Shown: in pieces, positions 4,623-43,506 of the stretch
Layout of the letters: every line of letters starts with the position of its first letter
How positions within the stretch are numbered: position 1 is the stretch's first letter
NCBI GenBank assembly: GCA_964291315.2
Contig: OZ219750.1
Coordinates: forward strand, 288,001 to 352,000
Length of the DNA: 64,000 nt
Source of the DNA: Candidatus Poribacteria bacterium
Lineage (GTDB): Bacteria > Poribacteria > WGA-4E > WGA-3G
Direction of reading: 5' to 3'
Notes under the pieces: generated by a model
What the model saw: only the letters and a program-made list of their open reading frames with translations
What the model was told of the DNA's origin: nothing
Database searches by the model: none
Program-made: the position numbers and the translations under genes

Positions 4623-4982
4623 AATAGATTTACTCGATGTGGAAATGGGCTCCTAGAGTGTCTCCTTTTTAAGGATTTTCATCAGAGAGATGTGGGTCAG
4701 TATAACCGAAAATGAGCAGCATGTCAACACGATTTATTAATCAGGAATGTGTCGAAATTTTGAGACTAAATCCTCATTCTGACGATCCCCTGCCAAAATA
4801 TTTATACGTTCTTCAAAAATCCACGCTTGACTTTTCCAAGCTTTTATAGTATCGTCTTATAGAGATGTTTTCTTATATAGTGTTGTAGTCTGCACCTGAC
4901 AGCTTGATGTTGCAACACACTAATTTCTATGTTAAGACGGTTACTTTTATAAAATATTTTTCCAGGAGGAAAACGGTACGTA

Positions 4983-11247: not shown

Positions 11248-11307
11248 GAGCAGTAGGTGTATAGAATTTTCTTGATTTTATTCGCCAGATTTCCTATTAG
11301 TTCTAAT

Positions 11308-14300: not shown

Positions 14301-14592
14301 TACTTTCACACACCCTAAACAGATCCTTGAGATGTACCGCCTCTTGTGTGCAGGCGTGGGTAAGCCCTACGAAGACCTATGTACTTTGTTTGACAGTCAG
14401 ACGAAAAACGGCACGGAGATGAATTATTACAACGATCTGCTCCAGAAAGCGGTTAACTCGCTCAGCCGCACCTATCGGAAACGAGCGATTGGCAATCTCT
14501 TGGCGAGCCGTGGTGGAAGACTTGTTAAACAACAGAACCAGGTACAAGATATAACGGATTTTGAACTTATTACATGGTTGGTAATTCAATGA
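11308..14592 (+). CDS. Phospholipase D-type nuclease domain fused to SNF2-family helicase (defence-associated)
   Basis: HAKMYHID (HxKxxxxD) plus GSSNFT; DSVGLGKT; IDESH; SATP; SEGQNLQ, YDIHWNP, QRFGRIDR. Confidence 0.9.
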   Translation: MSHLKSSIRDNHTRGSVGDFLKAKIEKDSSLSIVSAYFTIHAFQALKEGLTEIKGLRFLYGEPRFIKSLDPEKTAKKAFEIEGEGLTFDVLLKQNWIARACAAWIREKVEIRSIRKSNLMHAKMYHIDNSGIEDAIVGSSNFTLRGLGMSSTDNNIELNLEVDSNRDRNDVKLWFDEIWDDTKLVEDVKDEVLLYLERLYQNNSPEFIYYKTLYHIFERFLDDQRESGLLAEDVQLMDTVIWDTLFEFQKDAVKGAINKIRQHNGCIIADSVGLGKTFEALAIIKYFELLNNRVLVICPKKLRDNWTVYRAENNSELNLFLKDRFGYTVLSHTDLSRDSGKSGDIDLKTVNWGNYDLVVIDESHNFRNNTPGKKDEDGNLIRKSRYQRLMEDIIQNGIKTKVLLLSATPVNNNLKDLRNQIYFLTEGQDDAFRESLGIASLKNTLADAQRTFTEWSKGSNRQTRGLLERLSTPFFKLLDGVTIARSRKHVEKYYPESIKELGGFPDRNKPISVYTDIDLQRHFVSYDELNEEISEYQLSLFNPSKYVLPQYISQYEDGQVGQFTQSNREHYLIGMMKINFLKRLESSVHSFGITMRRTIEKIEKLEKRIKRFQKFRDENSGMDLDALEIEASEDEELREAMQVGKNLVFKMAHLDTQRWLEDLERDREQLELPRLYAEDVTADRDAKLVRLKELIAEQVKHPITDKAGQPNRKVLVFTAFADTADYLYRALKQWATEDLGIHIATVSGGAGGNKTTFGKVEFSNILTNFSPNSKKRHLMKSMPQDQEIDLLIGTDCISEGQNLQDCGYLVNYDIHWNPVRIIQRFGRIDRIGNSNDRIQLVNFWPTPDLNRYIQLKSRVEARMALVDIAATQGDNLLDPDGIQELLEDDLKYRDQQLLRLKDEVLDIEDFDESVALNEFTLDDFRIDLMNYIESNRKMLEDTPLGLYAVVPPHSVYQVITKGVIFCFRQKADSVGNEKINPLQPYFLVYVRENGEVRYTFTHPKQILEMYRLLCAGVGKPYEDLCTLFDSQTKNGTEMNYYNDLLQKAVNSLSRTYRKRAIGNLLASRGGRLVKQQNQVQDITDFELITWLVIQ

Positions 14593-17500
14593 ACGAACTC
14601 CGGATAAAAAGAAATATTGAACAGGTACTTAAAGACTTTCAACGCGGTCCGCTGAAACTGAATGCCAGAAACCTACTTAATGCGCTCGGTTATGAGAGTG
14701 AGATGATAATGGATCTCGAATCTAGTCTCGCTGAGGAATTTATTTCAGTTTTTAGCGAGTTCGGGAAATTGGATCGGCAGCGGGCAATCGTAGACGAGTG
14801 GGAAACTATTGATTTCCTGTTTCAACTCACTGAAGAAGAACTCTCCGGTACAGGCCAGACGCGAATCGTTTTTTCTAACCGACAGTTTGACGATACGATT
14901 ATGGAGTCCTATGTTTTCTTCGCTTTGAAACTCAGGGAAGACAATTATACCCGCGCACAGCTATCGACAATCACTCGCGAAGTTAACAAAATCATGCCCA
15001 TGCCCGCCATGATAATCTTTCAGCATGGTGAAACCTTGACGCTTGCAGTTATTGATCGCCGTTTGCACAAGCGCGACGAATCAAGAGACGTTCTTGAAAA
15101 GGTAACCCTGATTAAAGATATTGATTTCCACGAGCCGCACCCTGCGCACATTAAGATACTGTTTGACCTATCGCGCAATGAGTTGTTCAGGGTTCACGGT
15201 TTTAGTAACTTTGTCGAACTCCATCGTGCATGGGAAAAGACTTTGGACATTCAGGAACTAAACAGAAAGTTCTATCGTGAACTATCTGATTGGTATTTCT
15301 GGGCGGTAGAGCGTGTTGCGTTCCCGGAAGATGCAGGCAAAGAGGTAGATATCCGCAACGCTACGAGTGTGATCCGTCTGATTACGCGATTGATTTTTGT
15401 CTGGTTCATCAAGGAAAAGAGATTAATCCCGGATATCTTTTTTAATCCGAGGGAGATAGAGGATATCCTTGTTAGCACGGATCCACAGGAGAGTAGCTAC
15501 TACAAGGCTATTCTCCAAAACCTATTCTTTGCCACCCTTAATCAAGAGATGAACACACCTCAGAAATCTGATAACCGTAAATTTCGCGGCAAGGGGCGAC
15601 AACACTACAATATCACATCGCTCTACCGCTATGAAGAATATTTTTCGCATCCAGATGCGGCATTGCGCCATTTTGAGACAATCCCTTTCCTGAATGGTGG
15701 TCTCTTTGAGTGTCTTGATAAGAAAAGTCCCGAGGATTCCAGTAAAATTTTGCGGATTGATGGATTTTCTGATCGGATTGATAATTCGTTGTCTGTTCCG
15801 AATTTTCTGTTTTTTTCTCAGGAAAGGGAGGTTGACCTCAACAAATTCTACGGTACAAAAGGTAAAAGATATAAGGTTCGGGGGTTAATTGAAATTCTGC
15901 GCCGCTACAAGTTTACAATTACTGAGAACACCCCGATTGAAGAGGAAGTCGCCCTTGACCCCGAGTTGCTTGGAAAGGTCTTTGAGAACCTGCTTGCTGC
16001 GTATAACCCTGAAACAGACACGACCGCTCGTAAGCAGACGGGTTCTTTCTACACCCCGCGTGAGGTTGTTAATTACATGGTTGGTGAGTCGCTCATTGCC
16101 TATCTCACAGACGCATTAGATACATCATCTTTTCCTTCTGATGAAGAGGGTCAGGAGGTAACTCTCAAACTCCGGCACCTCTTCTCCTATAGCGACGAAC
16201 CGCATCAATTTACACATATTGAAACCCAGCATCTCATCAACGCTATTGACACCGTCAAAATACTAGATCCTGCGTGTGGATCCGGTGCCTTCCCCATGGG
16301 CGTTCTACATAAGCTGGTTTTCGTTTTGGGAAAACTTGACCCCGGCAATGAGCAGTGGAGACAACGGCAAATCGATAAAGTTGATACCCTTATCAACATG
16401 GCAGAGACTATTGACGACAGCACTGTTCGGCGGAACACCGTCCGTGAGCTCGAACGAGAAAAGGACAATATCAACGAAGCGTTTGAACGCAATGAACTTG
16501 ACTACGGCAGAAAGCTCTATCTCATAGAGAATTGCCTCTACGGTGTAGACATTCAACCGGTTGCTGTCCAGATCGCCAAGCTTCGTTTTTTTATTTCGCT
16601 TGTTGCAGATCAGCGAATTGACGATGCGCAAGAAAACAGAGGCGTGCGTCCGTTACCGAATTTAGAAACCAAGTTTGTAGCGGGAAACACACTTATTCGG
16701 GTGGAGAAACCGGAACAGCTGTCAATGCGGAATCCGGAGATTGATCGGAAGGAAAGGGAATTAAGCGGAGTCCGCCGGAAATACTTCACCGCTCGAACGC
16801 CGAGGACTAAAGAGAAGTGGCGTGTTCTTGATAAGCAGCTCCGCGCCGACATGAGTCTGTTGCTTAGAGATGACGGTTTCCCCAGCGAAACGACTGAAAA
16901 AATCGCCAATTGGGATCCGTATGACCAAAATGCTGTTGCTGATTTCTTTGATGCCGAGTGGATGTTCAATATTGCCGACGGTTTTGATGTTGTGATTGGC
17001 AATCCGCCTTATGTTAATATTGTAAACCTTTCTGTTATACTTAGGGATTATCTGTTCAAGAATTACCGGGCCTGTCAAAGGAGAACCGATATCTACATCG
17101 CTTTTCTTGAAAAATCTATTTCCATCCTTAGTGTGAAGGGAATTATGAGTTTCATTCTTCCATACGCTTTCGCTGTGCAGAAATATGGAGAGAAAATGCG
17201 TCAGATTCTGATAGGAAATCATACTATTCGGGAAATCGTGGATGCTAGTAGTTACCGGATTTTTGAGAACGCTTTTGTGTACAATATTATTTTGACAGTC
17301 GGTAATTATAAAGTACCGGCTCGTACGAAAGTGCGCTTGTATCACAGCAATGAGGATTTTGATAAGGGCGGAGGGACGGAATTCTTGATTGATCAACATT
17401 CTTTTGCGAAGCTCAAAGATTCTCGTCTTGAAACTAAACCTTATGTATTTGACAGTTTGAAGATAAAAGAAAAGATATTACGGTGTTCAGTTCGCTTTGA

Positions 17501-18191
17501 TCAGATTTGTCTTGTCTCTTACGGGGCCAGGCTCAATCATCGCTCAAACAAAAAATTGCGTAAAGTTCATTATATCAGTCAAGTACCAACTTCGGGCAGT
17601 AAACGATTTTGTGAGGGGAAAACATTAAAGCGTTACACCTTTTCTCAGATAGGCTGGTTGAACTATACTCCAGATGAACACTACAACCCGATGTTTCCAG
17701 AGTTGTTTGAGAACAAAAAATTGATGTTTGTTAATATTGTGAAAGATCGGTTACGTTTTGCCTATGATGATGAAGGTTTTTACAACAGTAATACAATTGT
17801 GAATTGCGTCCGATTGGATTTACTTTCGGGTGCGTCTCATATTTCAGCCCGTCGCGCTATTCGAGCTGCTGATAACGGTTTTGCTAAGAAGCATGATTAC
17901 AAGTTTCTTTTGGGTGTGCTGAACTCTGATTTCATCAATTGGTACTTCCGCAACTTTTTAAGCGAAGGGTTACACTTTTATCCAAATGATGCCAAAGAGC
18001 TACCTATCCCTGATGTAGCTTTTGAAAAACAAGCTCCGATTATTGAAATTGTTGATCGAATCCTGATTGCCAAACACACTGATCCAGACGCGGACACGAC
18101 TGAAATGGAAAAAGAGATTGACAAACTGGTATATGCTTTATACGGCTTAACCGATGCTGAGATTGCGGTTGTGGAGGCATTAGAGGGATAA
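14589..18191 (+). CDS. Eco57I/type IIG-like N6-adenine DNA methyltransferase with C-terminal TaqI-like target-recognition region
   Basis: FLNGGLF, LLGKVFENLL, GSFYTPR, ILDPACGSGAF (motif I), VIGNPPY (motif IV), LGVLNS...LPIP...LYGLT tail; ATGA overlap with the helicase. Confidence 0.9.
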   Translation: MNELRIKRNIEQVLKDFQRGPLKLNARNLLNALGYESEMIMDLESSLAEEFISVFSEFGKLDRQRAIVDEWETIDFLFQLTEEELSGTGQTRIVFSNRQFDDTIMESYVFFALKLREDNYTRAQLSTITREVNKIMPMPAMIIFQHGETLTLAVIDRRLHKRDESRDVLEKVTLIKDIDFHEPHPAHIKILFDLSRNELFRVHGFSNFVELHRAWEKTLDIQELNRKFYRELSDWYFWAVERVAFPEDAGKEVDIRNATSVIRLITRLIFVWFIKEKRLIPDIFFNPREIEDILVSTDPQESSYYKAILQNLFFATLNQEMNTPQKSDNRKFRGKGRQHYNITSLYRYEEYFSHPDAALRHFETIPFLNGGLFECLDKKSPEDSSKILRIDGFSDRIDNSLSVPNFLFFSQEREVDLNKFYGTKGKRYKVRGLIEILRRYKFTITENTPIEEEVALDPELLGKVFENLLAAYNPETDTTARKQTGSFYTPREVVNYMVGESLIAYLTDALDTSSFPSDEEGQEVTLKLRHLFSYSDEPHQFTHIETQHLINAIDTVKILDPACGSGAFPMGVLHKLVFVLGKLDPGNEQWRQRQIDKVDTLINMAETIDDSTVRRNTVRELEREKDNINEAFERNELDYGRKLYLIENCLYGVDIQPVAVQIAKLRFFISLVADQRIDDAQENRGVRPLPNLETKFVAGNTLIRVEKPEQLSMRNPEIDRKERELSGVRRKYFTARTPRTKEKWRVLDKQLRADMSLLLRDDGFPSETTEKIANWDPYDQNAVADFFDAEWMFNIADGFDVVIGNPPYVNIVNLSVILRDYLFKNYRACQRRTDIYIAFLEKSISILSVKGIMSFILPYAFAVQKYGEKMRQILIGNHTIREIVDASSYRIFENAFVYNIILTVGNYKVPARTKVRLYHSNEDFDKGGGTEFLIDQHSFAKLKDSRLETKPYVFDSLKIKEKILRCSVRFDQICLVSYGARLNHRSNKKLRKVHYISQVPTSGSKRFCEGKTLKRYTFSQIGWLNYTPDEHYNPMFPELFENKKLMFVNIVKDRLRFAYDDEGFYNSNTIVNCVRLDLLSGASHISARRAIRAADNGFAKKHDYKFLLGVLNSDFINWYFRNFLSEGLHFYPNDAKELPIPDVAFEKQAPIIEIVDRILIAKHTDPDADTTEMEKEIDKLVYALYGLTDAEIAVVEALEG

Positions 18192-28988: not shown

Positions 28989-29747
28989 ATGCGGTTGAAT
29001 AATAAAATTGCTGTTGTCACAGGAGGCGGGCGCGGTATCGGCAGAGCAGCGGCACTCCGGTTTGCTCAAGAGGGAGCCAAAGTTGTTGTTGATGACGTGG
29101 ACGATAGCGCGGGAACGTCGACGGTTTCCGCTATAACAGGTGCAGGCGGTGAAGCACTGTTTGTTAACGCTGATGTTGCCGACCCTGACGATGCAGAAAG
29201 ACTGGCTGCTGAGGCGGTCGATGCTTACGGCACGGTTGACATCCTTGTGAATAATGCTATCTGTTCTACAGCCGATGTACTCAACAATAACTGGGAGGCA
29301 AACCTCGCTGTTGCTCTTCGAGGAACCAGCCACTGTTCCAATGCCGTTATTCCGGTGATGCAAGAGGGCGGAGGAGGTAGTATTGTTAACGTCGCCTCAG
29401 TCAACGGACTTGTCGGATTACAGGCGATTCATGCCTACTCTGCTGCAAAAGGTGGTGTCATCGCACTGACCCGATCCATGGCAGTTGTACACGGTAAAGA
29501 CAACGTTCGTATCAACTGTATATGCCCCGGGACAATTCAGACTGAGGTTTGGGAACCGATGCTTGAACGTAACCCGCAGATCCTAGATGAACTCACATTT
29601 TGGTACCCGTTAGGACGGATTGGACAACCCGTCGATATTGCGAATGCTGCACTCTTTCTGGCATCTGATGAAGCGGGTTTTGCAACGGGGGCGGTCTTTG
29701 TCATTGATGGCGGCTTGACAGCTGGCAATCACCAGTTCCCGATTTGA
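28989..29747 (+). CDS. Short-chain dehydrogenase/reductase
   Basis: TGGGRGIG, NNA, YSAAK. Confidence 0.93.
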   Translation: MRLNNKIAVVTGGGRGIGRAAALRFAQEGAKVVVDDVDDSAGTSTVSAITGAGGEALFVNADVADPDDAERLAAEAVDAYGTVDILVNNAICSTADVLNNNWEANLAVALRGTSHCSNAVIPVMQEGGGGSIVNVASVNGLVGLQAIHAYSAAKGGVIALTRSMAVVHGKDNVRINCICPGTIQTEVWEPMLERNPQILDELTFWYPLGRIGQPVDIANAALFLASDEAGFATGAVFVIDGGLTAGNHQFPI

Positions 29748-29910
29748 AGATCAAAGAAATTACGGCAGATATGCTGAAACAAGAGATTGACCTCTGTTCT
29801 TATACGATATGAAATTGAAGGATACCGTCTCTATACGATAAGCTGCAAGTCCTATGCAAAAAAGATGATAATCCTATATCTCACACATGAAGACAAAAAG
29901 GATGTATCTA

Positions 29911-30605
29911 TATGTCAAAGAAAAGTTTCGACCAAAAACTGATTAATCTTCTCGAAACCAACCCTAACTTTGTTGATGATAGCGGAGCATTCCATCGCCC
30001 GAGCGTCAGGCAACGGGCTTGGAAACTCGACCCCGAGCTCATTCGGACCCTGTGTACCGACGAAGAAATCGCGGCGAAGTTCTTCAAAGAGATAGCAGGA
30101 CGCTGGATCTTCGATAACAACGCCTTCGTTGATTATATCACGGATAAGAACTTCTTTGCCGACTCCTACACCCAGTTCCGCAATAGAATCGGCTTGAACA
30201 TTGATGGCAAGTATCTGCGCGAGCGTGGGGAAGTCGCCCTGGTCTGGCCGTATAAGGATTGCGTATTAGAAGGTGGTCAGACGCGCGAAGAGGAGAGGCG
30301 TAAAGAGATATTCTTCAACGAGGTTCTCGCGCCGGATGAGATAGATCGTATGTTTGATGCGAAGGTTCTGATGGGTTGGGAGCGTCATGGTGTTAGGAGT
30401 ATGGGAGGAGAGGTTGATAAGAGCGGGGGGGGTAATCTGTGATAAGCACATAGAAAATGGAACCCTCGAACTGAAGCGAGATGACGCTGGCGTTATTCGC
30501 GAGAACCTTGTCATCAAAGGCAACAACCTGATTGTCCTGCACACCCTTAAAGAGCAATTTCGCGGGCAGGTCAAACTCATTTACATCGATCCACCGTATA
30601 ATACG
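29911..30605 (+). repeat. Direct repeat, mod 5' conserved block (other copies about 31882-32680 and 35936-36733; copies 2 and 3 also share about 104 bp of upstream DNA)
   Basis: Near-identical nucleotide sequence by visual comparison. Confidence 0.92.
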
Positions 30606-31874
30606 GGAGGTTCATCGGAGACCTTTACCTACAACAACGCCTTTAATCACTCAACGTGGCTGACGTTTATGAAAAATAGGCTTGAAGCATCTCTCGATTT
30701 ATTGACTGCAAACGGAATGATAGTGGTTGCTATTGATGACATTGAAATGTTTTATCTGGGTGTGCTTTTAGATGAAGTTTTTGGTAGACAAAACAAGATC
30801 GGTTTAGTCTGCATTAGACATCACCCTCGTGGTAGAACACAAAGTCGTTTTTTTTCCGCAGTTCATGAATATGCGCTTTTTTATGCCAAAGACATTGAAC
30901 AAGTGACAGAAAATTTTCGCTTTGAAACGGATGATGTAGAAGAAGTAGAATCCTTCATCCGGGGAAGAGAAGATGCAACACCTGAGACTCGACCTACCCT
31001 CTATTATTCAATTTTTTACAACCCCGCGACAGGGGAGATTGCACTCTCTCCGAAGAGTAGTGATTTCATTGAGCTCTTACCGGAAAATAGGAATGGTATG
31101 AGGACTTGGAAACTTGTTAAAGAGTCTTTCTTAAAGGAATTACAAGAAGGCAAAATTGAGGTGCGAAACGTCAACAACAAATATGAAATTTATAGAAAGA
31201 TAGTTAGAGAGAAAAATAAAGCGAAGACAATGTGGACAGAGCCTCGGTATGATGCAAACCCTCATGGTACGGGGCTCCTTAAAAAATTGTTTGATGGGCA
31301 AACTCCGTTTAGCTATCCAAAATCGTTGTATACAATTGTGGACATCCTAAAGCTCACAACGAGTGAGGATGACCTTGTGCTCGACTTCTTTGCGGGCTCA
31401 GGCACTACAGGGCATGCGGTCTTAGAATTAAATAAACAAGACGGAGGATCCCGGCAGTTTATACTCGTAGAACAGTTGGACAAGCACATAGCCGTTTGTA
31501 AAGAACGACTTGAGAAAGTCATTGAAAAAGAAGGGCTTCTCGGAGCACATTTCGTCTCGTGTGAGCTGATGCCTTACAACGAAGTCTTCATGGAACGGAT
31601 CCAGTCGGCAGACACCTCTGCCGAGCTATTGGACATCTGGCACGATATGTCAGAAGATTCCGCTCTCAATTGGTACGTCACCCCGGAGCATCCAGAGGCG
31701 GCAGAGGCACACTTTATCGCTATCAACGACGTTGAGGGACAGAAGCGGCTATTAGCGGAGTTATTGGATAAGAATCAGCTGTATGTGCATCTCTCTGAAA
31801 TAGAGGACGAAACATTTCAGGTCAGTGAGACAGATAAGACGTTGAATAAGGCATTTTACCGCAAACCGCTATGA
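29912..31874 (+). CDS. mod: Type III R-M methyltransferase Mod, copy 1, split by a frameshift at G8 (30425-30432)
   Basis: N-terminal ORF 29912-30442 plus overlapping catalytic ORF with IKGNNL, YIDPPY, YPKS, DFFAGSGTT; G7 or G10 would fuse them. Confidence 0.9.
31378..31858 (+). repeat. Direct repeat, mod 3' conserved block (other copies about 33498-33980 and 37549-38000)
   Basis: Near-identical DNA from the VLDFFAGSGTT codons to the C-terminus. Confidence 0.92.
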
Positions 31875-31985
31875 ACAAACTCATTTGATGGCTTTATTTT
31901 ACCACAAAGTTCTCTTTGGACAACATTGTTAATTCTCTATCAATTCACATTACCTCACACATGAAGACAAAAAGGACACACCTGT

Positions 31986-33996
31986 ATGTCAAAGAAAAGT
32001 TTCGACCAAAAACTGATTAATCTTCTCGAAACCAACCCTAACTTTGTTGATGATAGCGGAGCACTCCATCGCCCGAGCGTCAGGCAACGGGCTTGGAAAC
32101 TCGACCCCGAGCTCATTCGGACCCTGTGTACCGACGAAGAAATCGCGGCGAAGTTCTTCAAAGAGATAGCAGGACGCTGGATCTTCGATAACAACGCCTT
32201 CGTTGATTATATCACGGATAAGAACTTCTTCGCCGACTCCTACACCCAGTTCCGCAATAGAATCGGCTTGAACATTGATGGCAAGTATCTGCGCGAGCGC
32301 GGGGAAGTCGCACTCGTCTGGCCCTATAAGGATTGTGTATTAGAAGGCGGTCAGACGCGCGAAGAGGAGAGGCGTGAAGAGATATTTTTCAACGAGGTTC
32401 TGGCGCCGGATGAGATAGATCGTATGTTTGATGCGAAGGTTCTGACGTGTTGGGAGCGTCATGCTATTAGGGCGATGGGAGGAGAGGTTGATAAGAGCGG
32501 GGGGGGTAATCTGTGATAAGCACATAGAAAGTGGAACCCTCGAACTGAAGCGAGATGACGCTGGCGTTATTCGTGAGAACCTTGTCATCAAAGGCAACAA
32601 CCTGATTGTCCTGCACACCCTTAAAGAGCAATTTCGCGGGCAGGTCAAGCTCATTTGCATCGACCCGCCGTATAATACAGGTGGAGAAGCAAATATTTTC
32701 ACTTATAACAACACTTTCAACCATTCCAGTTGGCTGACCTTTATGAAAAATAGGTTGGATATAGCAAAACAATTGTTGAGAGATGATGGGTTTATCGCAA
32801 TTTCCATAGATCAATATGAGCTTTTATACTTAGGAACGTTAGCTGACGAAATTTTTGGGAGGGATAACCGTATTTCGGTGCTAACCATCGTTCATCATCC
32901 GGCGGGTAAGACCAACAACAATTTTTTCGCAACAACAAACGAATTTATGATAGTGTATGCTAAGAATAGGGAGCTTGCAAAGCTAAGCTTTTTCGAGATG
33001 TCTGAAAAGACTGAGAGGAGCTACCAGCACGTAGATGAGGTTTCACGATACAAACTAGAAAATCTGATGCGAAAGGGGGAAACAAGGAACGCTCGCCGAG
33101 AAGATAGACCGAAACAATTTTATCCCATTTATATCTCTAAGGACCTAAAACAGATTTCTTTGACAAAAGAGGACAACTATTATGAAGTTCTCCCAACAGA
33201 AAATGGGAGAGAATGGGTATGGTCAAATTCACCTTCAACTTTGCAGAAAAAAATAGATAATAACGAAATAGCTGTCAAAAAGCATAAAGATGGATACATT
33301 CAGGTCTTTTTTAAACGAAGAATCACGGATTATCCGGGAGAGCGTCCGAAGAGCACTTGGATTGGTAAAAAGTATAATGCTACGGAACATGGCACCAAAC
33401 TGTTGGAGCGTATATTGGGGAAAAAATCTTTTTCATATCCAAAGTCGTTATACACGATCGTAGACATCATAAAAATTACGACAGAGCCTGGCGATATTGT
33501 GCTGGATTTCTTTGCGGGCTCAGGCACTACAGGACATGCGGTGTTAGAGCTGAATAAAGAGGACGGTGGCAATCGGCAGTTTATCCTTGTAGAACAGTTG
33601 GACAAGCACATAGCCGTTTGTAAAGAACGGCTTCGGAAAGTTATGGAAAAAGAGGGGCTTCTCGGAGCACATTTCGTCTCGTGTGAGCTGATGCCTTACA
33701 ACGAAGTCTTCATGGAACGGATCCACTCGGCGAACACCTCTGCCGAGCTACTGGACATCTGGCACGATATGTCAGAAGATTCCGCACTCAATTGGTACGT
33801 CACCCCGGAGCGTCCAGAGGCGGCAGAGGCACACTTTATCGCTATCAACGACGTTGTGGGACAGAAGCGGCTATTAGCCGAGTTATTGGATAAGAACCAG
33901 CTGTATGTGCATCTCTCTGAAATAGAGGACGAAACATTTCAGGTCAGCGCGGCAGATAAGACGTTGAATAAGGCATTTTATGGTAATCTTATATGA
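31986..33996 (+). CDS. mod: Type III R-M methyltransferase Mod, copy 2, split by a frameshift at G8 (32499-32506)
   Basis: Same architecture; CIDPPY, DFFAGSGTT; central region differs from copies 1 and 3. Confidence 0.9.
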
Positions 33997-34025
33997 ACTA
34001 CCTGAAGCTATCAGTATATGGATAG

Positions 34026-35486
34026 TTAAACACCAAAAAATTCCGAAATACCCTTAATAAGCTTTGAGTAAATACTCAAAGCTCCAGATGTTGTGGACAT
34101 AAGATCAACTGGGGTTTTTCGTGAATTTGAAACATGAAATATGGCATTTCGGTGCATTTTGAGTTTTCGCATTTCTTTAGAAGACGTGAATGTATCCAAT
34201 TTTCTATTGGCTAGTGAAGGATCCTCTTTTGATACAGCATAGTAGATTCTCAGAAGCTCATAAAAAAGAGCTATGTTAACCCTATATGGGGCAATCCACT
34301 CGTCACAATCTTGAAGGCTAAAACTGTTAGGGATGTCTTTACAGATGCAAGATAATTCTTCCTTACTGATTAAAGGATACTGTTTATTTTTTTCCAAAAG
34401 ACTCATATTAACTGAATTTCTTTCGTAAAGAAATTCATTCCACAGTACAACACTAGTCATTAGAATGCGCATGTAGCCTCCTATATTCTCCTTTAGATGG
34501 GTTGCATGCTCCCGGCTACCAAGAAAATTTGATATTTGCCTTCCAGATATCAACATAGCAATTATATGATGTCGCATTGCCGTTTGTTTCTCTACTAGCT
34601 CAGTAGATTGTCCATCAATAATAATAGAGGTTTCTCCTGTTAAGTATTGTGGAATGAAGTGCACTTTAGGCAAAGCCTGATCCAACTCGTTCATGCATTC
34701 TGCAATACAATAGGCTATCTTTATTTGTGTTTGGTTCGGTAACCAGGATTGAATGTTCTCTGGCAATATTTTTATTTTTCGCTTTAGTTCTGGTAACTGA
34801 TCCACACACCACTTCATGCCTGATAGGTTGTGATCAAGTTTCATTTGCTCCATCTTGACTGTTAGAAAGCTATATAGGCAATACAATTTCTGGATTTCCG
34901 GTAGGCAATTAAGAGTGTTTGACAGATAATTGGATAATTTGTCCTGCAGCCTTTGTAGGTATCCATCGAATTTGCATTGCAGGATTGGAGCTAGGTTATG
35001 AGAAGGCTTAACTTGTAAAAATTGACGTTCAGCAGAGAGACTGTCTTTATTCGGATGCAGGAAAGAATCTCGGAATTTCTTTAACCTATCAACCCACTGT
35101 TTGTTGGTTTTCAAATAAGAATCCAGTTCATCATCCCGGTAGATGTTGTGGGTTTTCTTTAATTTTTCGAAAGATTCAATTTCAGCGTAGAACAAAGCAA
35201 GGTACAGTTGAAGCGGATAAACCGTTGCATATTCGATACCAGTTCGATTAGTCTCATTATTTTCTAATCCTTGATCGTTCAGCATCTTCGATTGAATGTC
35301 TTCTATTGTTACCTCGCCTTCGTTTCTATTTTGGCAATACTCAGATGCTTCTGTAAAGTGGATCATATTACGAAATGCTATTTTACGTATGCGCTCAAGA
35401 ATGACTGTCCTATGGTAAAGTAAATTCTTATAAGGGTTAACTATGGATTGTATATTGACAATATCTAGTTTTTCAAGATCTGTCAC
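34026..35486 (-). CDS. AT-rich protein with two duplicated HEPN-like domains (putative RNase/defence effector)
   Basis: GTG start with GGAGG RBS; Rx4H motifs RDSFLH (aa 139-144) and RNAIFH (aa 446-451), each preceded by an alignable P....ALFY...K...LD...LK segment. Confidence 0.7.
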   Translation of the reverse strand: MTDLEKLDIVNIQSIVNPYKNLLYHRTVILERIRKIAFRNMIHFTEASEYCQNRNEGEVTIEDIQSKMLNDQGLENNETNRTGIEYATVYPLQLYLALFYAEIESFEKLKKTHNIYRDDELDSYLKTNKQWVDRLKKFRDSFLHPNKDSLSAERQFLQVKPSHNLAPILQCKFDGYLQRLQDKLSNYLSNTLNCLPEIQKLYCLYSFLTVKMEQMKLDHNLSGMKWCVDQLPELKRKIKILPENIQSWLPNQTQIKIAYCIAECMNELDQALPKVHFIPQYLTGETSIIIDGQSTELVEKQTAMRHHIIAMLISGRQISNFLGSREHATHLKENIGGYMRILMTSVVLWNEFLYERNSVNMSLLEKNKQYPLISKEELSCICKDIPNSFSLQDCDEWIAPYRVNIALFYELLRIYYAVSKEDPSLANRKLDTFTSSKEMRKLKMHRNAIFHVSNSRKTPVDLMSTTSGALSIYSKLIKGISEFFGV

Positions 35487-35586
35487 TTCAATTTCCTCCG
35501 TATTTGCCAGTTGATGTTTTATCCACTACAAATTGCAAATAACATAAGGTGGACTATATAGTTATCGATAATCTTATTTTGGGTAT

Positions 35587-35615
35587 AGTATAGCACAATT
35601 AAATAGGGAAATCAA
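35587..35615 (-). promoter_or_regulatory. Sigma70-type promoter for the dual-HEPN gene
   Basis: Minus strand TTGATT-N17-TATACT with an extended TG. Confidence 0.5.
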
Positions 35616-35899
35616 ATTTCGACCGGGGGTATTTAGTTTTAAAATTTCTCACTGACTGTATGATTTTAACATTAGGTGATTGTTAAACAAAAAAAAGATC
35701 CTTCGTGGTCTTGACCATTGTAACAGTTTATACAGTTTAGGGGCAATCTGAGTTATGTCTAGAAAAATGTCCGATAAATCGGCACGTGAAAAAGCAAGCT
35801 GGCTCTGCTTAGGTCAAAAATAATAAATGTAAAAAAAATAGGCGAAGAAATACAGATACCTGCTCATAAGAGAAAAAAGTCGTTTATTTCGCAGAAAAG

Positions 35900-35908
35900 T
35901 GTTATAAT
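35900..35908 (+). promoter_or_regulatory. Extended -10 promoter upstream of mod3-res
   Basis: TGtTATAAT just before the repeated upstream block. Confidence 0.45.
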
Positions 35909-36039
35909 CTATTATGAGGATTTCTTTTGGAACAACATTTGATGGCTTTATTTTACCACAAAGTTCTCTTTGGACAACATTGTTAATTCTCTATCAATTC
36001 ACATTACCTCACACATGAAGACAAAAAGGACACACCTGT

Positions 36040-38053
36040 ATGTCAAAGAAAAGTTTCGACCAAAAACTGATTAATCTTCTCGAAACCAACCCTAACTTTG
36101 TTGATGATAGCGGAGCACTCCATCGCCCGAGCGTCAGGCAACGGGCTTGGAAACTCGACCCCGAGCTCATTCGGACCCTGTGTACCGACGAAGAAATCGC
36201 GGCGAAGTTCTTCAAAGAGATAGCGGGGCGTTGGATCTTCGATAACAACACCTTCGTTGATTATATCACGGATAAGAACTTCTTCGCCGACTCCTACACC
36301 CAGTTCCGCAATAGAATCGGCTTGAACATTGATGGCAAGTATCTGCGCGAGCGCGGGGAAGTCGCCCTGGTCTGGCCGTATAAGGATTGCGTATTAGAAG
36401 GCGGTCAGACGCGCGAAGAGGAGAGGCGTGAAGAGATATTTTTCAACGAGGTTCTGGCGCCGGATGAGATAGATCGTATGTTTGATGCGAAGGTTCTGAC
36501 GTGTTGGGAGCGTCATGCTGTTAGGAGTATGGGAGGAGAGGTTGATAAGAGCGGGGGGGGTAATCTGTGATAAGCATATAGAAAACGGAAGCCTCGAACT
36601 GAATAGAGATGATGCTGGCGTTATTCGTGAGAACCTTGTCATCAAAGGCAACAACCTGATTGTCCTGCACACCCTTAAAGAACAATTTCGCGGGCGGGTC
36701 AAACTTATTTACATCGATCCACCGTATAATACCAAAGGAGATGCTAACATTTTTGGATATAACAATTCTTTCAATCACTCAAGTTGGTTGACATTTATGA
36801 AAAACAGACTTGATATTGCTCAAGATATGTTATCAGAAAATGGAGTAATAGTTGTTACCATAGATGATTATGAATATGCTCACCTTAAATTGCTATGTGA
36901 TGAGGTTTTCGGCATAAACAATTATATTGGAACTATAGTAATCCAAAACAAGCCAGGTGGTAGGACAATAAACCCCCATTTTGCTACCTGTCACGAATAC
37001 GCTTTATTTTACGCGAAAGCTATTGATAATATAAAAACAAACCTTGTCAAACTCACTAAACAACAAGAGCTGAGCTTCAACTTTAAGGATCAGATTGGCA
37101 GATATCAACTTTCACCATTTAGGCGGGGTGGAGGCTATTCAACACCTGAAGAGAGACCTAATTCTTTCTATCCGATTTACTATAATCCACATGGAAATGA
37201 ATTTTCTCTTAAGAAAAAGGAAGGATTTTTTCAAATTCTCCCCAAAGATTCACACGGGAAAAACCGAGTTTGGCGGCAGACAAAACCCTCTTTTGAAAAA
37301 TTAGTGGAGAAAGGGGAAATCGTCTGTAAAAAGTCTAAAGGCAAATGGAGCTTGTACATAAAGGATCGGATGCCAGAAGGACGGAAAACTAAAACGATAT
37401 GGACTGATTCAAAATATGACGCGTCAGCACATGGAACAATACTTCTTAAAAAGATGTTTGATGGTGAGAAAGTCTTCAGTTATCCTAAATCGATTCATGC
37501 CGTAAAAGATACTATTAATCTTCTAACTCAGCCCAACGATAAAGATATTGTGCTGGATTTCTTTGCGGGTTCAGGCACTACAGGGCATGCGGTGTTAGAG
37601 CTGAATAAAGAGGACGGTGGCGCTCGGCAGTTTATACTTGTAGAACAATTGGACAAGCACATAGCTGTTTGTAAAGAACGACTTGAGAAAGTCATTGAAA
37701 AAGAGGGGCTCCTCGGAGCAAATTTTGTCTCGTGTGAGCTGATGCCTTACAACGAAGTCTTCATGGAACGGATCCAGTCGGCGAACACCTCTGCCGAGCT
37801 ATTGAACATCTGGCACGATATGTCAGAAGATTCCGCTCTCAATTGGTACGTCACCCCGGAGCATCCAGAGGCGGCAGAGGCACACTTTATCGCTATCAAC
37901 GACGTTGAGGGACAGAGGCGGCTATTAGCCGAGCTGTTGGATAAGAACCAGTTGTATGTGCATCTCTCTGAAATAGAGGACGAAACATTTCAGGTCAGTG
38001 AAGCAGACAAAACACTCAATAAGAATTTTTATGAAGGAGATCACGATGCCTAA
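36040..38053 (+). CDS. mod: Type III R-M methyltransferase Mod, copy 3, split by a frameshift at G8 (36553-36560)
   Basis: Same architecture; YIDPPY, DFFAGSGTT; 3' end overlaps the res start. Confidence 0.9.
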
Positions 38054-40649
38054 CCTATTTCTCCATGAAGAACTCGACATCGCATTTAGCTACGGGGTAC
38101 CTAAACCTGAAATACCTGATAGCATTCTTCAAAACCTGAATCCTGCGTTTGAGCTTCGACCTTATCAAGTAGAGGCGTTTGCGAGGTCTATTCACTGTTT
38201 GAACGGAGATCTTCAGGCTAAGCAAAATCCGTCACATCTGCTGTTTAATATGGCAACCGGCAGCGGTAAGACGCTTATTATGGCGGGGCTGATCCTCTAT
38301 CTCTATGAACAAGGCTACCGGAATTTTCTCTTTTTCGTCAATGCCGACAATATCATTGAAAAAACAAAGGATAATTTTCTCAATTCGGGGTCCTCAAAAT
38401 ACCTTTTCAATGCGGACATCTATATCAAAGGCGACAGAGTTAAGGTGACAGAAGTAGAGAATTTTGAAGGAGTCAACGCAAACGACATTAACATCCGATT
38501 TGCGACAATTCAGAAGTTACACAGCGATTTGATGACAGAAAAAGAGAACGCTTTAACCTTTGATAATTTTGAGAAAGAGAGAATCGTTCTTTTGGCTGAC
38601 GAAGCGCACCACCTGAACGTCGCTGCGAGGGCACAACAGATCCAATTGGCTCTCAGCACGAAGAATTCAAAATTGGCTGGGAAGCCGACATGGGAGAACA
38701 CTGTTGAAAAGATATTTAACGCGAACGCCGGCAACTTGTTGCTGGAATTCACAGCTACGTTTGATGACAAAACCCCTGCAATTGTAGAAAAGTATCGGGA
38801 TAAAATCATCTATCGCTATGATTTAGTTCAATTTCGGAACGACAAATATTCAAAGGACATAGAGATTGTGAGGTCTGATTTCAGTCTGGAGGACCGTATT
38901 TTGCAAGCTGTTATTCTTCATTATTACAAGCAGGCAGTTGCTGCAAAACACACGATCCAGCTGAAACCGGTCATTCTGTTTAAGGGAAAAACAATACCGG
39001 ATTCCAAAAAAAATAAAGCGGATTTCCATAAACTTATGGAAAGGCTCACAAAAAATGATATTGAAAGGATTCGGAGGTCTGAAGTTGAAATTATTAAACG
39101 GGCGTTTCGCTTTTTTGATAATCATAAGATCAGTTCCGAGCAGTTGACTCGATCGCTCAAAACGGTCTTCCAGGAAAAATATTGTCTCGCTGTTAACTCG
39201 AAGATAGAGAGAGAGAAGTATCAGGTACAGGTAAACAGACTTGAGGAAAGAGACAATCCCATCCGCGCTATTTTCGCAGTGCAAATGCTCAGCGAAGGAT
39301 GGGATGTGCTGAATCTGTTCGACATCGTCCGCTGTTATGATACCGGTAGCACAGGGCATAACAAAATTGGGAAAGCGACAATTGCGGAGGCACAGCTTAT
39401 TGGGCGTGGGGCGCGTTATTATCCGTTCGCTCTGTCAGGGTACGCGGATAAATACAGGCGCAAATTTGACGAAGACATTGAACATGAACTTCGTGTGCTT
39501 GAGGAACTACATTATCACAGCATTAATGACTCGCCTTACATCACTGAAATCCGAAAGGCCCTGGTCGAGCAAGGGTTGATAGACAAAGAGACTGTGACTC
39601 GAGAGCTTAAATTGAAGGAGAAATTTAAGAAAACGGACCTTTACAAGTACGGTGTTATCTATTTGAATAAACAGGTGTCCAGAGACTATCAATATGTCAA
39701 ATCTTTTGCGGATTTGGCATCCTTGAGTGTGAAAAAGAAATGGCATGAGCATACGATTCACGAAAGCACGGGAGGGATGACGAAGATGATAGGAAAAAAA
39801 CAGACTTATGCCGTGCGGAACACAACTAGCCAAGACATAGCGATGGTCCATATTGAGCGCAATATTGTCCAAACTGCCCTCGCGCGGAATCCATTTTTCC
39901 GGTTTGCATCACTTAAGCGATATTTTCCGCAGTTGAGATCCATGAATGAATTTAGGACATCACCTGACTTTTTGGGGGGCTTGTCAATCACTTTCAAAGG
40001 AGATTTTTCCCAATTGGAAGACAGAGCATCAGAAAAACTGAAGGCGTGTTGCGATCTTTTGAAAAGAATAGAAACCGAACTTCGCCAACAAATTACCGAA
40101 TCTGAAGGTACGAAGTCCTTTCATAAGGAGCAAATCCACGCTATTTTCAAGGACAAGGCCCTGAAGTTCGATGCTAAGAACCCTCGGGCCGATGAGGATC
40201 ACGATGCTGAGCGTCTCGCGAAAGCGGAGAAATGGTTTGCTTTTGATGGGCTATACGGCACCAGCGAAGAAAAAGCCTTCGTACAATTTCTACATACACA
40301 TCTTGAAACATTAGAGGAAACCTACAGCGATATTTATCTGATCCGTAACGAGAGACATTTTTCTATTTATAATTTCCGTGACGGTCGAGCGTTCCAACCC
40401 GATTTTGTCCTCTTCTTAGGAAAGGAAGGCGGAGAAACATTGAGCTATCAACTTTTTATTGAACCGAAAGGTGAACACATTGCAGATTTTGACAGATGGA
40501 AAGAGGGCTTTCTGAAAGAAATTGATAGTGAACATAAGACTGAACTCATAATAGAGGATAAGAAATACCGTATTATCGGTCTACCGTTTTATCAGGAGAG
40601 AAAACAGAATGAATTCCGCGTTGCCCTTGATAAAGCACTGCAATTATAA
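38046..40649 (+). CDS. res: Type III restriction endonuclease Res subunit
   Basis: MATGSGKT, DEAH, EFTAT, LSEGWDVLN, QLIGRGAR; C-terminal FQPDF...FIEPKG (PD-ExK); RBS GAAGGAG. Confidence 0.93.
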   Translation: MPNLFLHEELDIAFSYGVPKPEIPDSILQNLNPAFELRPYQVEAFARSIHCLNGDLQAKQNPSHLLFNMATGSGKTLIMAGLILYLYEQGYRNFLFFVNADNIIEKTKDNFLNSGSSKYLFNADIYIKGDRVKVTEVENFEGVNANDINIRFATIQKLHSDLMTEKENALTFDNFEKERIVLLADEAHHLNVAARAQQIQLALSTKNSKLAGKPTWENTVEKIFNANAGNLLLEFTATFDDKTPAIVEKYRDKIIYRYDLVQFRNDKYSKDIEIVRSDFSLEDRILQAVILHYYKQAVAAKHTIQLKPVILFKGKTIPDSKKNKADFHKLMERLTKNDIERIRRSEVEIIKRAFRFFDNHKISSEQLTRSLKTVFQEKYCLAVNSKIEREKYQVQVNRLEERDNPIRAIFAVQMLSEGWDVLNLFDIVRCYDTGSTGHNKIGKATIAEAQLIGRGARYYPFALSGYADKYRRKFDEDIEHELRVLEELHYHSINDSPYITEIRKALVEQGLIDKETVTRELKLKEKFKKTDLYKYGVIYLNKQVSRDYQYVKSFADLASLSVKKKWHEHTIHESTGGMTKMIGKKQTYAVRNTTSQDIAMVHIERNIVQTALARNPFFRFASLKRYFPQLRSMNEFRTSPDFLGGLSITFKGDFSQLEDRASEKLKACCDLLKRIETELRQQITESEGTKSFHKEQIHAIFKDKALKFDAKNPRADEDHDAERLAKAEKWFAFDGLYGTSEEKAFVQFLHTHLETLEETYSDIYLIRNERHFSIYNFRDGRAFQPDFVLFLGKEGGETLSYQLFIEPKGEHIADFDRWKEGFLKEIDSEHKTELIIEDKKYRIIGLPFYQERKQNEFRVALDKALQL

Positions 40650-40675
40650 ACATCAAATGTATCAGGAGGGGTACG

Positions 40676-41527
40676 ATGGTAACACGTGAGCAGACCGACT
40701 TTTTTCACGAAAACGGATATGTCAAGTTTGGCAGGGTTTTAGATAACGATGGCGTTGAAGCGATGCGGGCAGGATTGGATGCAGTCATTCAGCTGGAGCT
40801 TGCTGCAGGCGATGATTCGTCCCCGGAGTTCAAGTACGGGCATGATCGCGGCGGAGATAGACTTAATCGAGGGGGTGGGCACCCGCGGGCGATTCACCAA
40901 TACATTAATATGTGGAAGCGTGATCCGCGCTATGAGGCAGCTATTCACCATCCGCTCATTGCAGGTACAGCCCGCGCCTTGTTAGATACTCCGGAGGTCC
41001 GCCTTTGGCACGATCAGGTTATCTCCAAGCCGCCTCACGACAACGGGCACTTCGGATTCCATCACGATTTTTTCTTTTGGCCCCTCAGCCCACCGAACAT
41101 TGTCAGCTGCTGGCTAGCGCTTGATGACGCAACAGTTGATAGTGGTTGTATGCACGTTATGCCGGGGAGCCATAAAGACCAACGTTTCTCTGTCGCAGCA
41201 CGAGCGACAGCAGAAGCGGCAGCGGTGAAAGCGCGCGAAGAAGGACGTGAACTGCCGGTCGACCCGTGGGCGGAAAGACGAAATTTGGACATCAGCCACG
41301 GGATTCCCGTAGAATTGGAGGCAGGCGAATGCATGTTCCACCACTGTCTGAATTTCCACGGCACGCCGCCGAATGTCACAGCGCGTCAACGGCGCGCGTT
41401 CGTTATGATTTTCATGGCTCAGGATGTCTGCTTTAACAAGGTGCAGTCACCGAACCATGTGCTTGTTCCAACAATAACGGTTGCGGATGGAGAACCGCTT
41501 GTCGGAGACGGATTTCCGGTAGCCTAG
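40676..41527 (+). CDS. Phytanoyl-CoA dioxygenase (PhyH)-family Fe/2OG enzyme
   Basis: FFHENGYV, HHD (HxD), WLALDDAT, PGSH, FHGT.PN...RRA. Confidence 0.88.
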   Translation: MVTREQTDFFHENGYVKFGRVLDNDGVEAMRAGLDAVIQLELAAGDDSSPEFKYGHDRGGDRLNRGGGHPRAIHQYINMWKRDPRYEAAIHHPLIAGTARALLDTPEVRLWHDQVISKPPHDNGHFGFHHDFFFWPLSPPNIVSCWLALDDATVDSGCMHVMPGSHKDQRFSVAARATAEAAAVKAREEGRELPVDPWAERRNLDISHGIPVELEAGECMFHHCLNFHGTPPNVTARQRRAFVMIFMAQDVCFNKVQSPNHVLVPTITVADGEPLVGDGFPVA

Positions 41528-41561
41528 CTTTGTAACGGATTTCCGGTAGCCTAGCTTTGTA
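41508..41561 (+). repeat. Perfect 27-bp tandem duplication covering the PhyH stop codon
   Basis: ACGGATTTCCGGTAGCCTAGCTTTGTA x2 (41508-41534, 41535-41561). Confidence 0.92.
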
Positions 41562-41619
41562 CAGGATCTGTGTTACAAACCGCATCTACAGCACAGGAAG
41601 CGAGGCGAGAGGTGATCAG

Positions 41620-42825
41620 ATGAAAGATTCAACGTTTATAACAAGGGTTCAACTGAAAAATTATAAGAGTATCGCGGCATGTGATGTGCAGATGCGGTCT
41701 TTGACGTTCCTTGTAGGGCGCAACGGTTCAGGGAAAAGTAATTTTCTTGATGCCCTACGTTTCGTTGCCGATGCGTTGAATCTATCACTGGACCACGCTG
41801 TACGCGACCGAGGTGGTATTAGCGATGTGCGCCGTCGCTCTCGTGGGCACCCAAATCATTTCAATATTCGTCTTGAATTTGCTCTGCCTGAAGGCTCTAC
41901 GGGCCACTACACTTTTCAAATCAGGACGCGTTCACCTGGCGGTTACAAGGTCCAAGCTGAAGAGTGTAAGATTCAGAACAAGCTGTCCCTTATGCCGGAG
42001 GAATACTTTTTTGTTGATGAGGGTACCGTGACGCGCAAAAGTGTTGATGTAGCCCCGGCGGCGGCTACTGATAGACTGTATTTGGTAAACGCTTCTGGTT
42101 TGCCCGAATTTCGCCCTGTCTATGAAGCGTTCTCTCAAATGGGATTTTATAGTCTCAACCCCGAGAAGATTCGTGATCTGCAGGCACCAGATTCCGGCGA
42201 TATGCTCCTTCGTGACGGGAGTAACTTAACAAGTGTGCTTACTCGGCTTTCGCCCACCGTAAAGAGGGACATTGAACGATATCTTGCACGAATTGTTCCT
42301 GGGGTTCATACGGTAGATGTCAAAAATTTTGGACCGAGGGAGACATTGGAGTTCAGACAAGTTGTCACGGGGGACAAACACCCCTGGAAATTTCTTGCGA
42401 ATAATATGTCTGCCGGTACACTCCGCGTATTCGGAATTCTGGTAGCACTATTTCAAGGGCGGTGTGATGTCCAAAAGCATGTACCCCTTGTCGGCATTGA
42501 GGAACCAGAGCTGGCCCTCCATCCGGCAGCTGCAGGGGTGCTGCTTGAGGTACTTCAGGATGCTGCTCGCAAGACGCAAGTTATCGTCACCAGTCACAGT
42601 CCGGATTTGCTCGATGATAAACACTTGGATCTGGAATCGATTCTTGCAGTCGAGGCGCATGAGGGAAATACGGCAATCGCTCCTATAGACGAAGTAGGGA
42701 GGTCTGTATTGCACGATCGACTCTATACAACAGGGGAACTCCTTCGGCTTGATGAGCTACGACCTGATCCAACTCGGGCATCTATAGGTGATAAGGCGGC
42801 CGGAAAGCAGCTTGATTTGTTCTAG
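41620..42825 (+). CDS. AAA_21/RecF-SMC-like ABC-type ATPase
   Basis: LKNYKSI, GRNGSGKSN, MSAGTLR signature, GIEEPELALHP, TSHSP. Confidence 0.88.
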   Translation: MKDSTFITRVQLKNYKSIAACDVQMRSLTFLVGRNGSGKSNFLDALRFVADALNLSLDHAVRDRGGISDVRRRSRGHPNHFNIRLEFALPEGSTGHYTFQIRTRSPGGYKVQAEECKIQNKLSLMPEEYFFVDEGTVTRKSVDVAPAAATDRLYLVNASGLPEFRPVYEAFSQMGFYSLNPEKIRDLQAPDSGDMLLRDGSNLTSVLTRLSPTVKRDIERYLARIVPGVHTVDVKNFGPRETLEFRQVVTGDKHPWKFLANNMSAGTLRVFGILVALFQGRCDVQKHVPLVGIEEPELALHPAAAGVLLEVLQDAARKTQVIVTSHSPDLLDDKHLDLESILAVEAHEGNTAIAPIDEVGRSVLHDRLYTTGELLRLDELRPDPTRASIGDKAAGKQLDLF

Positions 42826-42867
42826 GCTGGTAAAGCGGAGTCAAATCGAGCGTAAAGGAAATATTGA

Positions 42868-43506
42868 GTGGCGGTGAAAATTAGTTGCATTGTTGAAGGG
42901 GATAGTGAATTGGAATCTGTACCTGTCCTGATTAGGCGGGTCTCAGCGATGTGTTATCCTGGTGTGGCGCTTGTCATCCCACGACCTATCCGCATTCCCA
43001 GAAATCGGGTTATTAAAATCGGTGAACTTGAACGAGCAGTTGAGTTGGCTGCTCGGAAGATCCGGAGGCAGGGAGCTATATTTATCATCCTTGATTCTGA
43101 TCGTGATTGCCCGGCGCACTTAGGACCGAAGCTGCTTCAACGGGTTTTACGAACTCATCGAAATCTGCCGGTTGCCGTTGTGCTTGCAAAGTGCGAATTT
43201 GAGGCATGGTTCCTCGCAGCAGCTGAGTCCCTTCGTGGACAAAGAGGGTTAAGAAGCAATATCTACGCGCCGAACGATCCGGAGGCGATCTGTGGGGCAA
43301 AGGAATGGTTAAGTCAGCATATGCAAAATGGGAAAACTTACAAATCAAAGCGCGACCAACCCGCACTCGCAGCGATTTTTGATATAGAGCAGGCGCGTCG
43401 ATCCAATTCGTTTGACAAGTGCTACCGGGAGATCGTTCGTCTCCTCGGCGAGCTGCGAGAACCAGTTAAAATAACCAGTAAATCAATAAGGCAGCTAACA
43501 AAGTAA
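42868..43506 (+). CDS. DUF4276-like (TOPRIM-type) protein partnered with the ATPase
   Basis: IVEGDSE, ILDSD, EFEAWFLA, SNSFDK pattern. Confidence 0.75.
   Translation: MAVKISCIVEGDSELESVPVLIRRVSAMCYPGVALVIPRPIRIPRNRVIKIGELERAVELAARKIRRQGAIFIILDSDRDCPAHLGPKLLQRVLRTHRNLPVAVVLAKCEFEAWFLAAAESLRGQRGLRSNIYAPNDPEAICGAKEWLSQHMQNGKTYKSKRDQPALAAIFDIEQARRSNSFDKCYREIVRLLGELREPVKITSKSIRQLTK

Follow-up and report, generated by a model that had tools for sequence, protein, structure and literature searches.

Probable phase variation in a type III restriction-modification operon with three G8-interrupted mod genes in Candidatus Poribacteria

A stretch of 64,000 nucleotides from a Candidatus Poribacteria genome (GenBank assembly GCA_964291315.2, contig OZ219750.1, positions 288,001 to 352,000; hereafter the window) carries a type III restriction-modification operon with three mod genes and one res gene, in which each mod gene is split by a run of eight G residues. 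The favoured reading, at a probability of about 0.75, is that the operon holds a library of restriction-modification specificities, OFF by default and with three alternative Mods and one Res, which undergoes slipped-strand phase variation. A preliminary description of this DNA had proposed a phase-variable switch in an environmental symbiont captured with all three genes OFF, and this proposal is supported by G7 and G9 tracts in related sequencing runs and by in-frame and broken alleles in relatives.

Reading frames and tract lengths

The motif AAGAGC-G8-TAATCTGTGATAAGC is present at the three tract positions given in Table 1, and no other G or C run of at least 7 occurs in the 64-kb window. 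As the preliminary description had stated, each tract splits a type III mod gene: the upstream open reading frames (ORFs) have 176 residues and end in SGGGNL and a stop codon, and G7 or G10 would join the N-terminal and catalytic ORFs. The catalytic ORF (PF01555) lies in the +1 frame in all three mods. Both halves are otherwise intact, with DPPY and FAGSGTT kept in three of three catalytic frames and no further lesion beyond the tract. The two halves fall on one PADLOC model, MTase_III (type III methyltransferase), and match PF12564 and PF01555; DPPY at residue 68 and FAGSGTT at 335-351 of each catalytic frame, with the target recognition domain (TRD) between them, give the motif order of beta-class N6 methyltransferases. 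The res product (PF04851; PADLOC REase_III, E 2.6e-145) combines an SF2 helicase with a PD-(D/E)xK nuclease, as in type III systems, and is the single full-length match to this res in the whole genome.

Regarding the window mods, pairwise identity was 91-96% before the TRD, 40-47% within it and 91-93% after it, which is the combination of conserved 5' and 3' ends with a variable TRD characteristic of phase-variable mod genes. The TRDs of the seven members of the mod family in this genome were 22-62% identical between conserved flanks. Since the conserved parts of the three copies are 91-96% identical, the identical tracts are to be taken as one inherited feature, not as three independent ones. 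Synonymous differences among copies exceeded non-synonymous ones in both halves of the gene. All three TRDs have counterparts with 78-87% identity in other species, some of them in tract-free genes.

Contigs of four sequencing runs (X1-X4) of one study were compared with window positions 29700-40700, X1 being the closest; contigs of this kind drop rare variants, and short ones are not attributable to one mod copy or strain. These contigs show neither of the outcomes by which the preliminary description would be refuted, a uniform G7 or an invariant G8: G7, G8 and G9 are all present. No indel was listed at any tract in X1, where the mod2 tract is covered by a contig of depth 3131. G9 was found in X2 (summed depth 5193 of 41664), in X3 (6218 of 18799, and at the third tract 2600 of 43830), and in X4 on a 1223-nt contig reaching into TRD1, i.e. 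at the mod1 tract. G7, the in-frame length, was found in X3 at 4513 of 23599 over two contigs, single-copy contigs of that run having depths of 3886-4912. The repeat lies within the ORF and sets its frame, and its length varies between strains with both ON and OFF alleles, as known for phase-variable mod genes.

The named relatives of Mod are Candidatus Poribacteria, these being sponge symbionts. The junction between the two domains is about 196 nt long in the window mods, compared with 144 nt in tract-free relatives. Among 70 distinct mod junctions in fetched loci of relatives, 57 of 144 nt and one of 150 nt had neither insert nor run and were all in frame, whereas ten carried an insert with 7-11 G (two in frame, four at +1 and four at +2) and two kept the insert in frame with the run shortened (G6) or interrupted. 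In the protein collection, 29 entries stop at the run and five read through (binomial p 0.013 against one third), counted over the best 120 short and the best 120 long matches with one score floor, minus three entries of the same genome; these entries are not independent and are search-biased. One truncated entry (P0007, ending at GGG) and the beginning of P0124 are identical at 171 of 171 positions, but P0124 continues across the run as GGVICDKY; P0026 and P0027 represent a single allele, once in each of the broken frames. A quick tree of the N-terminal domain, with 47 rows bearing the insert and 70 of 161 plain rows, requires 20 changes of the insert, of which at least four are forced by well-supported branches; its history appears to be one of repeated gain, loss or recombination. 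In the predicted structure of a natural in-frame relative the insert forms a low-confidence loop (residues 170-178).

In one relative (L172), two full-length mods of this family stand in tandem and lack runs; the tandem layout is therefore independent of the switch.

Switch tracts and their flank across the genome

In the whole genome (4.4 Mb in 4 contigs) G/C runs of lengths 6 to 10 number 510, 47, 45, 18 and 2, the 45 runs of 8 comparing with about 4-14 expected by extrapolation. TAA directly follows 34 of 45 G8 runs, but only about 1% of G4-G6 runs. Regarding the 65 runs of at least 8, 59 lie outside ordinary read-through genes, about half of the runs being in methyltransferases. In four multi-copy methyltransferase families (typed by running one member of each through PADLOC), 28 of 28 copies are interrupted by such a run. 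These are the mod family of the window (seven copies), two Type IIG families (eight and seven) and another Type III-like family, whose coding strand has C8 (six). All seven copies of the mod family are out of frame (six with G8 at +1, one paralogue with G9), and all eight copies of Type IIG family B have G8 at +1; the other families of the genome are at +2 with G9 or have C8 on the coding strand. Four further genes bear runs: two Type III-like mods, both in frame and each adjoining a ResIII match, and two DUF1156 genes, one of which is in frame. In total, 32 methyltransferase genes bear tracts (15 Type III-like and 17 other) and 29 of these are out of frame. The methyltransferase set of the genome is very large, with 69 PF01555, 52 PF07669, 27 PF02384 and 9 PF06634 matches (overlapping matches, not gene counts), most of them without a run. 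Among the matches listed, leaders that precede genes for secreted proteins and methylases hold about 30 further runs. At sites such as L037 (G000:C1:9495) the poly-C is found about 40 codons into short leader frames; at C1:9495 itself, one frame stops before a T-tailed hairpin and another runs through, overlapping the start of a DUF1156 methylase.

Among 65 genomes of the genus, GGGGGGGGTAA was counted 45 times in this one, 32 and 23 times in two others and 0-5 times in the remainder, with 0-6 for the reversed control. Both mutS and mutL are intact in the genome, so that mismatch-repair loss was rejected as the cause of run variation.

TAA and TGA right behind the run stop both broken frames, an arrangement which selection could explain. 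A G8 tract of Campylobacter jejuni has the same TAA behind it (primer text, PMC3401435). The sequence GC-G8-TAATCTGTGATAAG is, however, also common to the family coded on the C strand, where those stops have no effect and the tract-free orthologues differ by only one base in length, and unrelated genes, whichever strand is the coding one, have the flank as well. In other genomes the C-strand family has its run at the same junction, with C15 in frame (L100) and C11 out of frame (L132).

An 18-bp palindromic profile trained on 25 tracts of relatives scored at least 10 upstream of 22 of the 65 long runs (AT-richness uncontrolled), compared with 1 of 3108 G5 runs and 2 of 510 G6 runs; none of the three window tracts has the palindrome next to it (profile scores -4, -7.9 and -4), and it is not enriched genome-wide. 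Beside many runs (L044, L051, L053 and the family C tracts) it contains TTATGT(T/G)AAGT, which presumably resembles the XerD arm of dif and is taken as a lead only. A search for full dif-like candidates yielded one, G000:C4:175179, with a consensus partly fitted to the data.

The simple reading of the shared flank would be common descent through copying. A more tentative proposal is a portable switch element, consisting of poly-G and a flank independent of strand (to one side TAATCnnTGATAA, to the other in many cases an ACTT-N10-AAGT palindrome), that might have been copied into loops of methyltransferases unrelated to one another and into gene leaders, its mutability or spread being controlled by a host DNA-binding factor, and that might yield, in some Poribacteria, a default-OFF library of about 30 specificities with few expressed per cell; the host factor binding the flank is speculation. 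The exact cassette pattern gave 0 matches in metagenome_contigs and viral_contigs, and a looser pattern gave 13 loci in genome_contigs, two of which are titled Poribacteria and lie in methylase genes, while the other 11 are chance-like (six being one conserved Chitinophagaceae gene). The palindrome-plus-tract pattern gave seven metagenome loci, none recognisably a methylase.

Mechanism and alternative explanations

In the proposed mechanism, the poly-G run of each mod sits in an inserted loop that separates the N-terminal domain from the catalytic one, and replication slippage would alter its length heritably and, within a clone, reversibly, G7 or G10 giving a full Mod and G8 or G9 a stop within five codons. 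The usual lengths of 8-9 being the broken ones here, the default would be OFF, with a minority of strains or cells having one specificity ON. G8 tracts of C. jejuni do switch, and those of G8/G9 there are more prone to grow than to shrink (PMC3401435); a like bias here would make G7 rare and, with few runs reaching 10, would leave OFF as the default, which fits the counts. A Mod that is ON would methylate its own site and could recruit the single Res, and the four orphan mods elsewhere may methylate alone or borrow Res. In a cell with every mod OFF, this locus would provide no restriction, because Res without Mod has no specificity subunit (Mod2Res1 organisation). Most likely, the population would use the switches as a shared library of restriction specificities directed at phages and other foreign DNA, and gene expression might be affected too. 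With ON states differing among cells, phage grown in one cell would stay unmarked for a neighbour's specificity.

Several points weigh against this reading. The variation seen lies between strains or samples, not within one clone, and the short contigs with G7 do not point to any one mod copy or strain. The window copies (G8) are below the working cut-off of Atack et al. 2018, a mononucleotide run of at least 9 (PMC5909438), G9 being reached in one genome paralogue and in runs X2-X4; because of this shortfall and of the intact mutS and mutL, switching may be slow. The 28 of 28 copies out of frame exceed the OFF share expected from even thirds, but counted per family this is just 4 of 4 (p about 0.2). 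The structure model with the loop is of modest quality (mean pLDDT, i.e. predicted local distance difference test, 58).

A true phasevarion, in which switching would mainly alter promoter methylation and thereby the expression of many genes, with restriction secondary, is compatible with the favoured reading and is a possible, less probable account of purpose. Four of the seven mod-family members are without a res nearby, and conserved ends with a variable TRD are the known pattern of phasevarion mods (PMC5909438). On the other hand, res is intact and overlaps mod3, an ATPase and DUF4276 pair matching PADLOC HEC-01A/B (window 41557-43506) lies 0.9 kb downstream of res, and the PF01555 and PF07669 matches of the genome are mostly tract-free. 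With res intact and a defence pair adjoining, diversification of phage defence appears at least as likely as a phasevarion.

It is unlikely that G8 is not fully OFF, whether through a split enzyme made of the N-half and of a C-half started from TTG, or through leaky frameshift suppression. GGAGG stands five bases before a TTG (at -11) that opens the catalytic ORF at G8 only, and its pairing with the anti-Shine-Dalgarno sequence (-10.2 kcal/mol) is the strongest of the starts tested and present in five of five close copies, the real mod starts pairing at -5.5 to -5.8 kcal/mol. This strong pairing is, however, absent in the two other mod copies of the genome, the GGAGG-TTG pair was not seen in the ten tract-bearing junctions of relatives, and GGAGG may merely reflect Gly-Gly-Glu codons; moreover, the split HP1369-1370 of Helicobacter pylori did not methylate (PMC3936762). 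As to leakage, the out-of-frame mod1 of Mycoplasma bovis was leakily expressed in Escherichia coli (bioRxiv 10.64898/2026.04.01.715767), but the present genes have no A-run in the stretch where an upstream slip could restore the frame.

Fixed-off relics decaying after a frameshift are improbable. All seven mod-family copies are out of frame and some relatives have short open frames past the junction; X1 in addition has one extra G in mod3 at 36695, just past the conserved part and 22 nt from the contig end, where X2 equals the window. Such decay is at odds with the lack of further lesions in the three window mods, with the synonymous excess in both halves and with the existence of in-frame alleles of the same kind.

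The preliminary description had also considered programmed +1 slippage at a fixed G8, transcriptional or ribosomal, giving full-length Mod at a set level, and this is more improbable still. The G8 at +1 common to most copies of the mod family and to all of Type IIG family B would agree with it, but run length (G7-G11) and frame (+1, +2, 0) both vary, other families of the genome use +2 with G9 or C8 on the coding strand, and both broken frames as well as in-frame DNA alleles occur, which leaves no fixed offset. Transcriptional insertions in homopolymers from E. coli and Buchnera all lay at A/T runs (PMC5574713). A homopolymer or polishing error copied over the repeats, for which long reads, as the 4-contig assembly suggests, could be blamed, is largely refuted: the G8 interruption is not an assembly error, since X1 has no indel at a deeply covered tract, other runs show G7 and G9, the same kind of split occurs in other assemblies, one allele is both truncated and read through, and six ordinary genes of the genome with runs of 8, including a minD-like P-loop gene, read through.

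Known systems and layout of the window

The switch type and the layout of three mods with one res are already known, from M. bovis PG45 and from the poly-G switches of Helicobacter. In PG45 (Mbo45ORF167P / Mbo45V, MBOVPG45_0168-0170; PDB 7DSU) one res accompanies three co-located mods (PMC5909438; bioRxiv 10.64898/2026.05.01.722158), likewise with TRDs that differ between conserved ends, a simple repeat that has the same location in every mod and a mod-res overlap, and a relative of the window Mod matches 7DSU (E 5.6e-16). The PG45 repeats are, however, AG repeats of differing lengths instead of identical G8 tracts, while the Poribacteria run follows a 170-residue PF12564 domain inside an inserted loop, in a 4.4-Mb host genome with intact mutS and mutL. 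Mycoplasma agalactiae also has tandem mods before one res, with repeat length correlating with methylation, but has two mods with GA repeats at the gene start (PMC9465063). As in the Type III and IIG methyltransferases of H. pylori (HP1369-1370, JHP1411, JHP1272), the gene is split by a homopolymer run; several of those genes are OFF in the reference genome, and frame correction restored activity in four of seven (PMC3936762). About seven such genes were tested there, compared with 32 tract-bearing methyltransferases here and a flank common to unrelated families. The contingency loci of C. jejuni, including the Type IIG gene cj0031, similarly have G8-G10 tracts in excess over shorter runs, and their switching alters methylation and phage restriction (PMC3401435; PMC4889913); 11-29 tracts per genome are reported, compared with 65 runs of at least 8 here. 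A G-tract switch is also known in a commensal (PMC9187656). Atack et al. report at most four independent phasevarions per species, environmental bacteria having mostly single phase-variable mods (PMC5909438). No report of phase variation in Poribacteria or sponge symbionts was found in a literature search that left most subscription papers and supplements outside; more genomes with several mods could be named in supplementary files to Atack 2018 and to the bioRxiv preprints.

Taken by itself the locus is modest, being one of many in the genome; distinctive are the host, how many methylases are switched, their bias towards OFF and an insert that is gained and lost together with a shared flank. 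If confirmed, the system would show contingency loci of the kind known from pathogens, in large numbers, in a symbiont phylum without cultured members. It would also allow phage defence and gene regulation to be compared in nature as roles of switchable methylases, since long reads with kinetics can link tract length to methylation motif and need no culture. Genes of this kind may be live, although in metagenome assemblies they are readily taken for pseudogenes or polishing errors.

Table 1. Positions of the restriction-modification features in the window
Feature	Position	Strand	Remarks
mod1 N-terminal ORF	29912..30442	+	176 aa; PF12564; stop SGGGNL directly after tract
GGAGG plus TTG (30414)	30404..30416	+	catalytic frame at G8; possible internal start; identical in 3 copies
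mod1 G8 switch tract	30425..30432	+	within inserted loop
mod1 catalytic frame	30387..31874	+	PF01555, DPPY, TRD1, FAGSGTT
mod2 N-terminal ORF	31986..32516	+	176 aa
mod2 G8 switch tract	32499..32506	+	
mod2 catalytic frame	32461..33996	+	TRD2
insert ORF	34026..35486	-	486 aa; low GC; between mod2 and mod3; no family found
mod3 N-terminal ORF	36040..36570	+	176 aa
mod3 G8 switch tract	36553..36560	+	
mod3 catalytic frame	36515..38053	+	TRD3; 3' end overlaps res start by 8 nt
Type III res	38046..40649	+	867 aa from ATG; GSGKT, DEAH, QLIGRGAR and PD...ExK nuclease motif intact

The insert ORF had no match in Pfam or PADLOC, nor in the atlas at 0.9 or above. In X1 the contigs of the insert ORF and of TRD3 have depths of 536 and 529, whereas TRD1 has 1043, TRD2 961 and res 818-902; the TRD3 depth in X2 is 284, compared with 3600-4100. 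The insert ORF is without cover in X2-X4, and TRD3 has little or none in X3 and X4. This is a weak hint that the unit of insert and mod3 (window 33918-37615) is present in some strains only; deletion of the mod3 unit is not shown, since no contig joins across the uncovered parts. X2 has a 27-nt in-frame deletion in res at window 38644. In mod2, Cys replaces the Tyr before IDPPY that is invariant in 44 relatives. Elsewhere in the window, a helicase-like gene is followed by an unbroken 1205-aa Eco57I-like methyltransferase without a run (11257-18191), and an A10 run (6589-6598) lies in frame at the start of a probable lipoprotein gene.

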